Sequence record: PV189404.1
DNA: 63,554 nt
Reading direction: 5' to 3' (one strand)
From: Escherichia phage vB_EcoP_phi346
Made by a program: the position numbers. Positions within the stretch are counted from its first letter, which is position 1; the number at the start of each line of letters is the position of its first letter. Of the stretch, positions 45,001-51,000 are shown one piece after another.

Positions 45001-48000
45001 CTTCCTTGAATGCAGCTGCTTTTTTACCAGTGAAGCCCATCACCAGGAAGACGAATCCGTTTTTGGTGATTTGGTACATTGGGCGTTGTTCGCCTTTGGC
45101 GTCGGTGTAGGTAACGTCCTCAAAATTGAGGGCGTTAAATTTCTCTGAGCATTCAATATTTGCAATGGCACGTAATACGTTATCGTGTCGCTTGCAAAAA
45201 TATTCGGCAACGGCAAAGGACGTAGTAACAGCGCGGCCATTGGAAATGGTGATTTCAGGTTGAGAAAGGACTGGGATAGTAGCCATAATGGCAGCCTCCT
45301 TGATTGGTGATTAATAACCACCGCAGGAGGTGAGAAGCTCGCTGGCGGTGGACTGTACAGGGTTCTCACAACTGGCAATCAAGGGAACCAGCCCGACCGA
45401 AGTCGGCCCCATACAGCCCACCATTGATAAGATGTGCGTGTATGTCGATACAAAAAAAGACGCTGGCGCGTCTGTATCGCCTCGATTGTCAGCGGGGTGA
45501 GAATCCCGACACCCGTTTTATAAGGTGTTCGCCCAATATAGCCCCGGCATCACACGCAGTCAATACCGTCCTTTCTCGGAAATGCTTTGGCGATGTGGCA
45601 GGTGGGAGACCCATTTCGACCCGATTCGGCCTACTTATCTTCAGCAATAGTCCCTCGGGCCTCGCCGCTTTACGTGCGACATATTCCCGTCCATGAACCC
45701 TTCACCACACCCCAAAACATTCCCTGTATTGGTCAGCGCCAACTTCCTGCCAGTGTTGCCCGTTCTCACGCCGTTCTCGCTCTCGCGCGGGGATACTCTC
45801 TCATCGACCGGATCGCACCCGATGATACAGCACGTTTACGTGTAGGGGTCTAAACAGGTCATTGACGCTGTAAAGCTCCAGATTGTTAAAGAGCATTTTG
45901 CGGCGGGTTAAGTCGCGCCGTACGACTGATTTATGTAGCCCTGTGTAAGGGCGCGATGTTTCTGGCTTGAAATAAATATAACTTGCGGTTATTTTCATGT
46001 AAATACCGTCGGTGCTTTTTTAAGGACGAGAAATTATTACTTAACTGATTTTTAAAGTGATTTATTTTTTAAGGGGACAGATAACAGGAGGGGATATGCA
46101 AAGAAAAACCCGGCGCATGGGCCGGGCTATTTATCTGGTCCTGTTCTCATTCAGTAGAGTAGGGGCCAAGAAATCGCACTCCGTTGAAGTGAATAAGATG
46201 AGAAGGTGCATCAGCCACCCATACCTCTGTTTCCCATGCGATTTCACCAAGATATCGCCCCATGATGGAGCGATTTGGAAAAGCGGTCACATAGACAAGT
46301 CCGGCTGTTGATCCGGCAAACAGCCTGGCAAGCTCAGCATGCCGCTTCCCATCAACCGGTCCATGACTGGTGACAGACTCAACCAGTAGCAGCCAGTTTT
46401 TCGCAGTAAAATGTAGCACCACATCTGGCATTTTACCGTGTGAATCCACATCAACACCTAGCCCGGCCAGCAGTGGAGCGTCGAAGTAGCCCCACTTTTC
46501 GCCAGTGTCGCCAGCATAGACCAGCACGCTACCCGGAGCAAAACGTGGGGCGAAGTCCTCTATTATGGCACGGATAAGTTCGCTGTGCTCGCCGGGACTG
46601 AGGGTTATTTGCTGGCCCGCAGCAATTTCAACAGGGATACGATTCTGTTCGCGCTCCTTAGCATAGCGGGTAACCAGCGTTTCACGCTCGGCTAAATAGG
46701 TTGCAAGGCTATCGTGCCATGCCGGGCTGCCGAAAGTGCGTAGCATGGACAGAGCAGCAGGTTCGATCTGATAAACAGCCTTCGGGCTGTTCACTGGGCG
46801 ATCGGGCTTGTCCGGATTGTAGAGGGCTACTCCAGCAGCGCAGAACTGATGCATAGACTGGCGGCGGAATGTCTCACGAGTATTGGGTGCGTAGACCTTG
46901 CCGTAGTGCTCCCGAACCCAATTCATGATTGGTGTAATGCCCACAAGCGGATTTTCCGCGTCGGCCCATGCTTTTCCCGGTGTGAGGTTCAGGAGTGCCA
47001 GCAAACACAAAGCAGAACGCTCATTCTGCTGCGCTCTGGGCAGGCCTAAGGATGCTATAATTTGCTGAGCGGCCTCAATATAATCATTTTGGTTGTTCAT
47101 GCAGTCAGAGCTCCTAGCTTAGCGTCAATATGTTCTTGCGTGAGAGTTTCTTGTTGCATAGCCCACTTGCCAAGCTCTATCAGAGTGTCACGGCTTGGGT
47201 ACTTAATCATCTTGAGGTCGGTTGCATTGACCTGTGTATGCCCGTTGAAGCGACGGAAATACTTATCCACTGCGGTAGTGTTCAGGAACACGGCCAAGCC
47301 ACGGGCCAGCGCCTCGGGTAACCCATGTTTGTTCTCATGAAACACGTTCATGTGATTTTCAAATCCCAACACTGAATACTCACTGAAGGTAGCAGGATCA
47401 ACGACGCTTGCTACCACTCGGCGCTTTTCCTCCTTCGACGAGAAACGACGCACCACACAATAAAAACCGTTCGGGTAAAGCCACTTTTCTGTCTCGTCGT
47501 TGCGCATGATTGCGTTGGGTTTCTTCAAACCTTCCACAGGCCAGACAGTGCTACTCATACTCAAATGGCTCGGGTAGATCAGGGGAACAGTTCCTTCTTC
47601 TGGCATGCTGCGCAAATGAGCTTTCAGTCGGAAATCAACTATCGGTCCGGTCGATACCTTCACGCCAATATCAGCCAGCGAACATTGTACGGCAGATGAT
47701 AACTCAATGGTGCTTTTCTCGAGCGTGGTCGGCACATGAATAAACCGCTCCGAATCGTCCGGGTACACAATCTGGTCAAATGGGTGTTCGTAGGTGACCA
47801 GGTCAAAAAAGCTATCATCGGTCGAAGTTGTGACTGTAACAGCCTCCTGACGGCCTCCACGCTCCAGGCGGATGATAATATTTTCCTGCAACACATCGTC
47901 ATCCCTGAAAGCTTTGCTACGTGATTCGAACAAATGAATATGGCGGATTGCTGCCCGCTCAAGTATGAAATTACGGAACGGACGGTAATACGGTCCGTTG

Positions 48001-51000
48001 CAGAAACTACGTGGGATTATGGCCACTATCTGCCCGCCAGGTGCAACCTCACCTACAGCCAGTGCAACAAAGGCGGAATACAGATTTACCGTCTCGATAC
48101 CGACAGTGCGAAGAGCCTGCCGGTGGGCTGACTGGCTATTGATCTTCTTGTAAGGCGGATTAAGTATTGCATGGGTATAACCTCGATCCTGTAGACCTTC
48201 GGCGGTTGCCAGCTCAATATAATCCCCTTCGATGATGCGGGGCGTCACTCTCCTGTACCCGGTTAAGTGCTTCGCAAGGTGACCACACAGCTTTTTGTCG
48301 ATTTCGTAGGCTGTTGCCTCGACAGACTCAAAGCCAAACTCGCCAACCAGCCAACGGTCGAGGAAGGCGCAAGACAGTGCGCCTAAACCAGCGCCTGCGT
48401 CCAGTAGACGGCAAGTTTTCATTGTGCTCGGTGGAAACAAGGAGGCCATAAAACGGGCCACGCCAGAAGGCGTCATGAACTGGCCGAACTCTGCTTTGTG
48501 TTTACGCGCGGTACGGGGAGACAGCTCGCGACGCACGCTGTCTGCGACGTCTAGCTTTTGAAGCATAACTAATCCTCTTTACGTGGCATGATGATGCCAA
48601 CGTGCTTTTGACATCCTCCACATTCTTCAGGCGTGAAGGATGTCAAATCACTCTGTGAGCTCAATCAAAAGTCTCATCATTCCACTGCGATTTGATGACC
48701 TTTCCGACAAACTGGCAGTTTTCGTTACACTCAATCATGTCGAATCGTGGGTTGAGCGGCTCCAGGTACGCTTTACCGCTCTCACGAATGAATCGTTTGA
48801 AGGTAAATTCATCGCCGTTCATTCGGGCCACGCAAAAATCGCCATCCTCGATTTCCCGTTCAGGGTCAACGAGTATCAGCATACCTTCAGGGAAGCTGGG
48901 TTTACCACCCTGCGGTGCGGTCATTGAATGCCCCTTGACCTCCAGCCAGAACGACCTGTCACTGGCTTTTGTGGTGGTGGAGATCCATTTAATCGCATCT
49001 TTTGCGGTGTACGAAATATCATCCATTGAGAATGCGCCAGCTTGTACGCAGGAGAGTAACGGATATTCGTAAGCGGGGACACGAGTTAATGGCTCTTCAA
49101 TTGCGAGCGCCATTTCTGCAATAGATTTTGCCAGGCTGGGACTGAAATCTCCGACCTTTACATTCAGTATCTTAGCAAGCTGTGCTGCGTGGCTGGCATT
49201 TATGGCGTTGATGCCAGCCATTAGCTGATTAACAGCGCTTTGGGTAACACCTAATTCATAGGCTAATGATTCCTGCGACAGGCCTAACTCTTTCTTTTTA
49301 GCGTTAAAAATACTTTTCAGACGCTTGGCGTCTTCCAGTTGCTCAGGGGTTAACGGTTTCTTTTTCATGTTCATACCATATCACCTTTGGTTATATGTAA
49401 TGAAATATCTGCGGTGTTGACATTTTAATAACTGTGCGTAATGATATGGGCATTTTGAAGGAGTCAGTTATGGCGATGAAAAAAGAGACCCTGGCTGATT
49501 ACGTATACAGGTTCGGCCAAAAGAAAGCCGCTAAGGACTTTGGCGTGGCGCAGAGTGCAATCAGTAAAGCGCTTCTCGTCGGACGAGAAATATACGTCAA
49601 AACCTTTGATGACGGCACAGTTGAGGCGGAAGAGGTTCGTCCGTTCCCTGCGTTCGTAAGAGGCGATGATTAATCCTGGACACACAGCCCATCGGAGGTG
49701 TGAGTGAACAGGCAAATCAAAACGGTTATGCCCGAGCAGTACTGTGATGCTGATCGGGACTGGATACAGGAGCAATTGTTACAGCTAGACCCGACCACCC
49801 GGGTAAAAATTGCAGCAGAGTACGCGAGAGTGTACCAGGAAGAGTGGGACAAGGAGCCTGTATCGTTCAGGAAGGGCAACAGGGCAAGACGGAGCGCCAA
49901 CACCCGGTTACGGGTGTATGTCCAGAAGTACGCGAGAGCCAGCCGTGGCTGGATGCTTTCGCCAGTAGCGGTACGGAAGTTTCCCCCGACACCATGATGG
50001 CGGTTAGTTGTGCTAGAAATAATTTCACATGCAACTAATTTCCTGAAAGGAAGCGAGGAGGGGGTAAGGGGGTGGAGTCGTTGGTAAGGCCTGTATCCCT
50101 TGGCCTAGGCCAGAAGGCAGGTACATAGGTTAGGTAGATCACTGTATAAGCGCGCGATAGTTCCTGGTGAAATAATTATCGAGCTAACTATTGAGTGATA
50201 AACTATGTCAGCAGCAACCAAATCGGCACTGATCCGTACACTGAGCACTGTACCACTGAGAACAGAGGAGCGTTACAGCTTTCTGGCTGATGTCGTAACG
50301 ATCCTTGAGTCACAGGGGATGCATGTGGCAAGCAATGTCACAGTAAGAATCGATGGCAGAAATTTCCGTGTTGATATTCTCGCAACAGCAAAAACTGGTG
50401 GGAGTGTGGCTATCGAGATCGATCGTAGCTCTCCGCGACCCCGCTCAGTCATGAAATTGCGTGAATTGGCACGTCGTGGCACTGAAGGCTTTGTGTTGCT
50501 TCGAATGCCAAAGAAACTGACCAGTTATAGCGATGCTGGGATCGATATCATCCCGGCGAATGGCAAGGGGGCGTCATGCTGAAAATCACCCCAAACTTTG
50601 CTCAGGAGCGCGGTTTAAACCAGCTGCGGCACCAGTGGAAACAGCATCGCACGTACCTGATGTATGCACCCACTGGCTCTGGCAAAACTGGTCTTGCAGC
50701 ATTCGTCACTGCCGGAATGGTTGAACGTGGTATGCGGGTGATGTTTGTCTGTCCGTACACCATCCTGCTGAACCAGACAGCGGAACGTTTCACCGAATAC
50801 GGTTTGCCGTGGGAAGAAATCAGTTTTGTATGGCGTGATCACCCTAACTATGACCCGTCACGACTGATTCAGATTGCCAGTGCCGACACGCTGATCCGTC
50901 GTGAGTTTCCTGACAACATCGATCTGCTGATCATCGATGAAGCACACATGAAGCGTCGTGCGTTACTTGAGGTTATCCGGGACAGAGACATCAGGGTTCT

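Follow-up and report, generated by a model that had tools for sequence, protein, structure and literature searches.

The EcoGIII restriction-modification pair in the immunity region of Escherichia phage vB_EcoP_phi346

Introduction

EcoGIII of Escherichia coli O104:H4 strain C227-11 is the closest described counterpart of the restriction-modification (RM) pair of Escherichia phage vB_EcoP_phi346 that is the subject of this study. It is a PstI-like system, of which the methyltransferase (M.EcoGIII) and the endonuclease (R.EcoGIII) were characterised in 2012 in C227-11, a strain of the German O104:H4 outbreak, and methylate and cleave CTGCAG, respectively, as stated in the passages on the system in PMC6602927 and PMC3893438. 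According to the part of PMC6602927 that cites Fang et al. 2012 (Nat Biotechnol 30:1232), EcoGIII was protective against lambda-like phages, and M.EcoGIII affected the expression of 1,951 genes as well as growth in C227-11; the results of Fang et al. on EcoGIII are taken here from citing papers. In two O111 lysogens, with a methyltransferase that is 99.7% similar, N6-methyladenine (m6A) was found at 100% of the CTGCAG sites (PMC6602927). In the O145 strain RM13514, 98.8% of the CTGCAG sites were methylated, compared with 0% in a sister strain without the cassette (PMC3893438), and according to a passage of the same paper the RM13514 endonuclease is identical to the C227-11 enzyme, which is biochemically active. 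EcoGIII in recipient cells was also found to lower the conjugation of pESBL (PMC4288162).

Among classical restriction systems, PstI of Providencia stuartii and BsuBI of Bacillus subtilis, both acting at CTGCA^G, are the nearest points of comparison. The PstI genes are divergently transcribed and chromosomal. With regard to genomic position, the counterparts are rexAB of lambda and stk of 933W, which give lysogens protection against other phages. SdaI, which acts at CCTGCA^GG, provides a crystal structure (PDB 2ixs) for comparison with the endonuclease.

The phage vB_EcoP_phi346 is given as Oslovirus PA2 in PMC12502783. The window analysed here is its entire deposited sequence of 63,554 nucleotides (PV189404.1), to which all coordinates refer unless stated otherwise. 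We conclude, with a probability of about 0.92, that the locus is the EcoGIII Type IIP RM system, a member of the PstI/BsuBI isoschizomer family, and that an Oslovirus-type Shiga toxin 2a (Stx2a) phage carries it in its immunity region as cargo expressed by lysogens. EcoGIII is already known, published and annotated in public records; the identification is correct and it is not new.

Results

Identity of the methyltransferase and endonuclease genes

The pair consists of two genes on the minus strand:

47097-48566 (-): M gene, gamma-class N6-adenine DNA methyltransferase; open reading frame (ORF) of 489 amino acids (aa), assigned from motifs, profile matches and identity to the C227-11 protein
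46147-47100 (-): R gene, BsuBI/PstI-family Type IIP endonuclease; ORF of 317 aa, assigned from Pfam matches, alignment to SdaI and identity to the C227-11 protein

Both proteins are identical to those of C227-11 over their entire length (489/489 residues for M and 317/317 for R), and likewise residue for residue to ORF31 and ORF30, respectively, of the O104:H4 phage P13374. At the DNA level, a 2.7-kb region is 100% identical in the sister phage phi349 and in PA2, PA8, VT2phi_272 and Stx2a_F765 and 99.8% identical in the O104:H4 phages P13374 and phiON-2011, and the RM region is 99.8-100% identical in 73 phage records. The locus shares with EcoGIII of C227-11 (P13374 ORF31/ORF30) the gene order, the ATGA overlap between the genes, the position after cI and the flanking DNA (99.8%). 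The two do not differ in their proteins but in the carrier, which is here an O157-type PA2/phi346 variant of Oslovirus instead of an O104:H4 phage.

The M protein contains the S-adenosylmethionine (AdoMet)-binding motif I, DAGAGLG, at residues 56-62 (48381-48401) and the NPPY motif at residues 136-139 (48150-48161). Motif I thus precedes NPPY, which is the order expected of gamma-class N6-adenine DNA methyltransferases, and both motifs are conserved among the relatives of M. An Eco57I methylase domain was detected with Pfam (E = 3e-9), and the PADLOC model MTase_II spans the whole protein (E = 5e-248). A ribosome-binding site, AAGAGGA, is located in the leader of the gene and was rated as good.

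R has a two-domain layout, with an N-terminal helix-turn-helix (HTH) DNA-binding domain and a C-terminal nuclease domain of the PD-(D/E)XK type. These correspond to the Pfam families PF17728 (BsuBI/PstI HTH; E = 1e-54, 184.4 bits) and PF06616 (BsuBI/PstI nuclease; E = 5e-61, 205.2 bits), both covered over nearly the whole profile and both well above the gathering cut-off of 27 bits that applies to each. R also matches the PADLOC model REase_II (E = 2e-168), and the SdaI structure aligns with it over its full length (E = 1e-77). Positions 46369-46428 encode the catalytic stretch, P225-D226 ... E241-S-V-T244. Its acidic residues D226 and E241, which are present in 79 and in all 80, respectively, of 80 relatives, align with D233 and E248 of SdaI. 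SdaI has the two-domain layout and the PD...E positions in common with R; it differs in its 8-bp site and in having K251 where R has T244.

R belongs to the same two Pfam families as PstI and BsuBI, M is of the same class of N6-adenine methyltransferase, and the recognition sequence is the one reported for EcoGIII. In contrast to the PstI genes, M and R of phi346 are arranged in tandem, overlap and are phage-borne. PstI and BsuBI themselves were absent from the top 120 matches of the protein search, which held only near-identical E. coli entries. Judged from these features, the locus is a complete Type II RM pair of the PstI/BsuBI family.

A preliminary description of this DNA had proposed an NPPY-motif N6-adenine methyltransferase followed by an endonuclease, and had named M.EcoGIII, a PstI-like (CTGCAG) enzyme of the O104:H4 Stx2 prophage, as a possible match. 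The ORF, motifs, Pfam and PADLOC matches bear out the methyltransferase, and the resemblance of R to restriction-enzyme families (Pfam, PADLOC, SdaI) goes far beyond chance. The match to EcoGIII was right, since both proteins are 100% identical to those of C227-11. The same description had suggested that the pair gives lysogens a restriction-based defence, which is supported by the published restriction of phages and plasmids by the identical system.

M was also compared with the prophage "rRNA methyltransferase" of PA2 and PA8 (Gong et al., NAR 2023). That enzyme, gp5 of the MT-A70 family, is not M: IS629 disrupts gp5 in PA2, whereas both PA2 and PA8 carry an intact M of identical sequence.

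Gene arrangement and expression

The surroundings of the pair are arranged as follows:

48661-49374 (-): cI repressor with HTH and S24 autopeptidase domains (Pfam Peptidase_S24, E = 1e-28; HTH_3, E = 8e-10)
47097-47100 (-): ATGA overlap of the M stop and the R start, indicative of translational coupling, read from the sequence
46098-46128 (-): intrinsic terminator, analogue of tM in 933W, found by terminator scan; AGCCCGGC-loop-GCCGGGTT followed by TTTTTCTTT
45975-46003 and 46001-46014 (-): candidate PL (TTTACA-17-TATATT) and an operator-like 14-mer, from a promoter scan and the resemblance of the 14-mer to OR

The cI counterparts in phages P13374, PA2 and phi349 are annotated as CI. From the cI stop to the M start there are 94 bp, with both genes on the same strand. 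The terminator at 46128-46098 is strong, with an 8-bp stem that contains 6 G-C pairs, and begins 19 nt past the R stop. A scan of the minus strand of the cI-M gap (48567-48660) yielded no promoter-like sites and no U-tract terminators. As the gap has neither and the unit ends at a strong terminator, M and R most likely share the transcript of cI, which would start at PRM in lysogens and at PRE during establishment.

The order of the two genes is widely conserved. M lies directly upstream of R in all 78 related loci for which upstream DNA was available; 31 loci of other phyla share the 4-nt overlap, and at almost every remaining locus the two genes are directly adjacent. No small HTH controller (C) gene was found upstream of or overlapping R: M is directly adjacent to R, and the 94 bp that separate cI from M are without a plausible gene. 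The order of M and R and their overlap are taken as a device that would keep R from outpacing M.

That lysogens express M is based on the published methylomes of strains with near-identical genes: methylation of 98.8-100% of the CTGCAG sites in carrier strains means that the EcoGIII cassette is expressed in lysogens.

A variable cargo slot between cI and PL

The RM cassette was found in 97 deposited phage genomes, almost all of them Stx-converting, and in 139 of 5426 complete E. coli genomes, where it was always chromosomal; its position was the same throughout. The cI region was matched by 97 phage records, the same number as carry the RM genes. Of these 97, 23 to 24 share only the C-terminal half of cI and differ in its N-terminal DNA-binding half and in cro, which indicates that the RM pair travels with two immunity types.

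The E. coli O103:H2 strain 12009 represents the second type. Compared with it, phi346 is homologous up to 45981, non-homologous at 45982-46127, homologous again at 46128-49072 (95.4%), a segment covering the RM genes and the C-terminal half of cI, and non-homologous at 49073-49688, where the N-terminal part of cI, OR and cro are located. An immunity region bounded by OL and OR classically shows this pattern, which places the candidate PL/OL at 45975-46014, at the edge of the immunity-specific segment 45982-46127. The 14-mer at 46001-46014 matches the one at 49403-49416, which abuts the -35 element of PR, in 11 of 14 positions, and in 12009 a different OL/OR pair, with 12 of 13 positions matching, occupies the corresponding place. 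The operator analysis gave one convincing OL/OR pair per immunity type; a full set of three operators was not defined.

Genome comparisons indicate that the slot between cI and PL is variable, with relatives that have the same or a related cI carrying different cargo between the same flanks. In the 933W record, the order is cI, a DUF3024 protein, a RuvC-like protein, stk, a small ORF, tM, nutL and N, and the slot cargo is annotated within the pM transcript that ends at tM. Strain 12009 carries the RM pair together with a Panacea-domain protein and its partner, inserted after R at the terminator (2489-3339 of its locus, L085). In FHI_NMBU_10, a HicAB toxin-antitoxin pair occupies the slot instead of the RM genes (3519-4108 of its locus). 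In the commensal strain SCU-104, M is entirely deleted along with two thirds of R from its N-terminus, and a pseudogene remains.

The RM pair resembles rexAB of lambda and stk of 933W in location and strand, directly after cI and before the terminator and PL. The proteins are unrelated, with DNA restriction here and abortive infection or exclusion in the other two. The preliminary description had already placed the pair in a rex/stk position; the order from stk to tM in 933W and the variable cargo of the relatives support this. Its further proposals on the layout held as well: a pair directly downstream of cI on the same strand (94 bp away), coupled in translation (ATGA) and followed by a terminator (46128-46098) and then the candidate PL (46003-45975).

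Origin of the cassette and the cI-M boundary

The cI-M gap contains two further elements:

48567-48606 (-): leader of M, with the ribosome-binding site AAGAGGA, a small hairpin (GGCAT-CATC-ATGCC) and a resolvase relic (KHVGIIMPR...)
48607-48647 (-): hairpin with a 16-bp stem and a 9-nt loop, without a U-tract, between cI and M, from RNA folding

In Serratia nevei, in a metagenome-assembled genome (MAG) of Acidiphilium and at other loci, M is preceded by a resolvase ORF, to the 3' end of which the segment 48567-48606 aligns. In this sub-lineage, whose cassettes are the nearest to that of the phage, the end of a serine resolvase gene lies immediately upstream of M. The relic in the phage comprises nine codons (KHVGIIMPR), corresponding to KHVGVITPRQ-stop in Serratia. 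By this alignment, the 40-nt leader of M is part of the acquired cassette and not of the phage backbone, and the relic upstream of M suggests that the pair reached the phage from a mobile unit linked to a resolvase.

In the genomes of at least 598 species there are relatives of R, which share 69-94% aa identity with it. They range over more than 10 phyla and include Chloroflexota, Verrucomicrobiota, Cyanobacteria, Acidobacteriota, Nitrospirota, Firmicutes and many Pseudomonadota. No cI homologue was found beside R in the relatives from other species. The aa identity of M among the related loci (L005-L084) is 54-84%, and at each of the loci examined conservation is higher for R than for M, with a mean column identity of 0.80 compared with 0.66. 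Fused M-R forms exist too, as indicated by the PADLOC model PDLC03359 (840 aa).

A fold of the 116 nt around the hairpin at 48607-48647 gave -37.7 kcal/mol with z = -3.6. The hairpin ends coincide with homology breakpoints, at 48647 in the HicAB-bearing FHI_NMBU_10 and at 48607 in the RM-deleted SCU-104, where the stems are identical and the loop is different. When a conserved hairpin upstream of M was sought across all related loci, it was confined to the sub-lineage nearest to the cassette of the phage; the leaders of other lineages differ, and accordingly we claim no family-wide RNA element. The hairpin may be a hotspot of recombination or a site of RNA processing, or its place at the breakpoints may be coincidental. 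We only tentatively suggest a broader scenario in which a dedicated hairpin marks the edge of the slot, as a hotspot of cargo exchange or as a processing site that uncouples M-R from cI, and in which the cassette came from a resolvase-linked mobile unit of a promiscuous lineage; this is rather doubtful as a whole.

CTGCAG sites in the phage

The window contains 10 CTGCAG sites, where 15.4 are expected from a mononucleotide model and 24.6 from a Markov model. Half of the sites (5/10) fall within CCTGCAGG. None is present in the 36.7 kb from 15749 to 52463, which hold the integration, early-left, immunity and replication genes; the phage would thus be unable to regulate its own switch through this motif.

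Alternative explanations

The pair could serve the prophage more than the host. If loss of the prophage or of M let R cut a progressively unmethylated chromosome, the genes would stabilise the prophage as an addiction module, a role that is compatible with defence. The equal numbers of phage records with the cI region and with the RM genes (97 each) fit this idea, as does SCU-104, the one loss variant found, in which M and most of R disappeared in a single event, since an RM system that causes addiction can be lost safely in no other way. Published tests of the identical system nevertheless show real restriction of incoming phage and plasmid DNA, and post-segregational killing by EcoGIII is not reported in the papers on the system cited here, so that we consider addiction a possible but not a probable explanation. 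Slightly less probable still is a primarily epigenetic role, in which the CTGCAG methylation by M serves to reprogram gene expression of the host or the prophage, with R of secondary importance. It would account for the effect of M.EcoGIII on 1,951 genes reported in the passage of PMC6602927 that cites Fang et al., and a later preprint cites M.EcoGIII as a prophage methyltransferase that drives transcriptional change. The expression changes in the published deletion may, however, stem in part from DNA damage or growth effects. A secondary role of R is also at odds with an intact gene under strong purifying selection, whose identity across phyla (69-94%) is above that of M. The lack of CTGCAG in the regulatory region of the phage at 15749-52463 speaks against control of its own switch through this motif.

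Certain features of the locus weigh against the interpretation as an active EcoGIII system expressed with cI. Attenuation or processing of the transcript could occur at the stable hairpin that separates cI from M; a weak promoter-like site inside M (ATGACG-16-TATTAT, 47902-47875 (-), 9/12 matches) could, if active, transcribe R independently of M, although it is probably a chance match; and the canonical lysine of PD-(D/E)XK nucleases, K251 in the E248-A-V-K251 of SdaI, is T244 in R. The hairpin could likewise insulate M-R from the cI transcript, as would be expected if the genes were expressed from a cassette-borne promoter, independently of cI and PRM, and their position after cI were incidental. 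The 40 nt upstream of M did arrive with the cassette and are common to non-phage loci. They are, however, the coding end of a resolvase gene in the source contexts and not a promoter, no sigma-70-like site is present on the minus strand at 48567-48660, the hairpin has no U-tract, and the cargo of 933W in the same slot is annotated on the pM transcript ending at tM. We therefore find an independent promoter unlikely. With regard to the active site, the change from E-A-V-K in SdaI to E241-S-V-T244 might suggest that R is an inactive remnant and M an orphan methyltransferase. T244, together with S245, H246 and K223, is invariant in all 80 relatives, which come from many phyla, indicating the normal active site of the subfamily instead of decay, and a degenerate nuclease is rejected on this ground. 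The ORF is moreover of full length, and the identical C227-11 enzyme is described as biochemically active in a passage of PMC3893438. An inactive R is accordingly highly improbable.

Other features of the window

An isrK-like small RNA (sRNA) followed by a C4 antisense RNA of the P1/P7 immI type was detected with Rfam in two copies, at 45341-45528 (-) and 32073-32255 (-). The former is flanked by the candidate PL and a gene for a Rha-family regulator (44639-45286). No N-like antiterminator gene was evident in the early-left leader, and together with the isrK/C4 RNAs this suggests that RNAs may exert early-left control. At 35322-35438 (+), Rfam detects an ALIL frameshift pseudoknot, the mark of an insertion sequence (IS) of the IS3 family. 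This is probably the IS629 that differs in position between PA2 and PA8 (Gong et al. 2023). Upstream of stx, at 55137-55385 (+) and 56794-57053, there are three tRNA genes and the sRNAs STnc100 (+) and AsxR (-, anti-stx2).

Discussion

In the mechanism that we propose for the EcoGIII system of phi346, M would methylate the adenine of CTGCAG in both DNA strands, in the chromosome of the host as well as in the prophage, and R would use its HTH recognition domain and PD...E nuclease domain to cleave unmethylated CTGCAG in incoming DNA. Lysogens would thereby restrict foreign phages and plasmids, and progeny phage would leave the cell already methylated. As M comes first and is coupled to R, methylation would be expected to get ahead of cleavage when the phage lysogenises a naive cell.

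This study confirms the system, shows more clearly how the cI-PL slot is occupied in this phage genus and points to where the cassette is likely to have come from. What is new is modest: the resolvase relic, the hairpin at the cargo boundary and the stronger conservation of R than of M. For the biology of the lysogens, EcoGIII is a barrier to incoming phage and plasmid DNA in Stx2a lysogens, including the 2011 O104:H4 outbreak strain, and it leaves a diagnostic CTGC(m6A)G mark on lysogen DNA that has been linked to broad changes in host expression.

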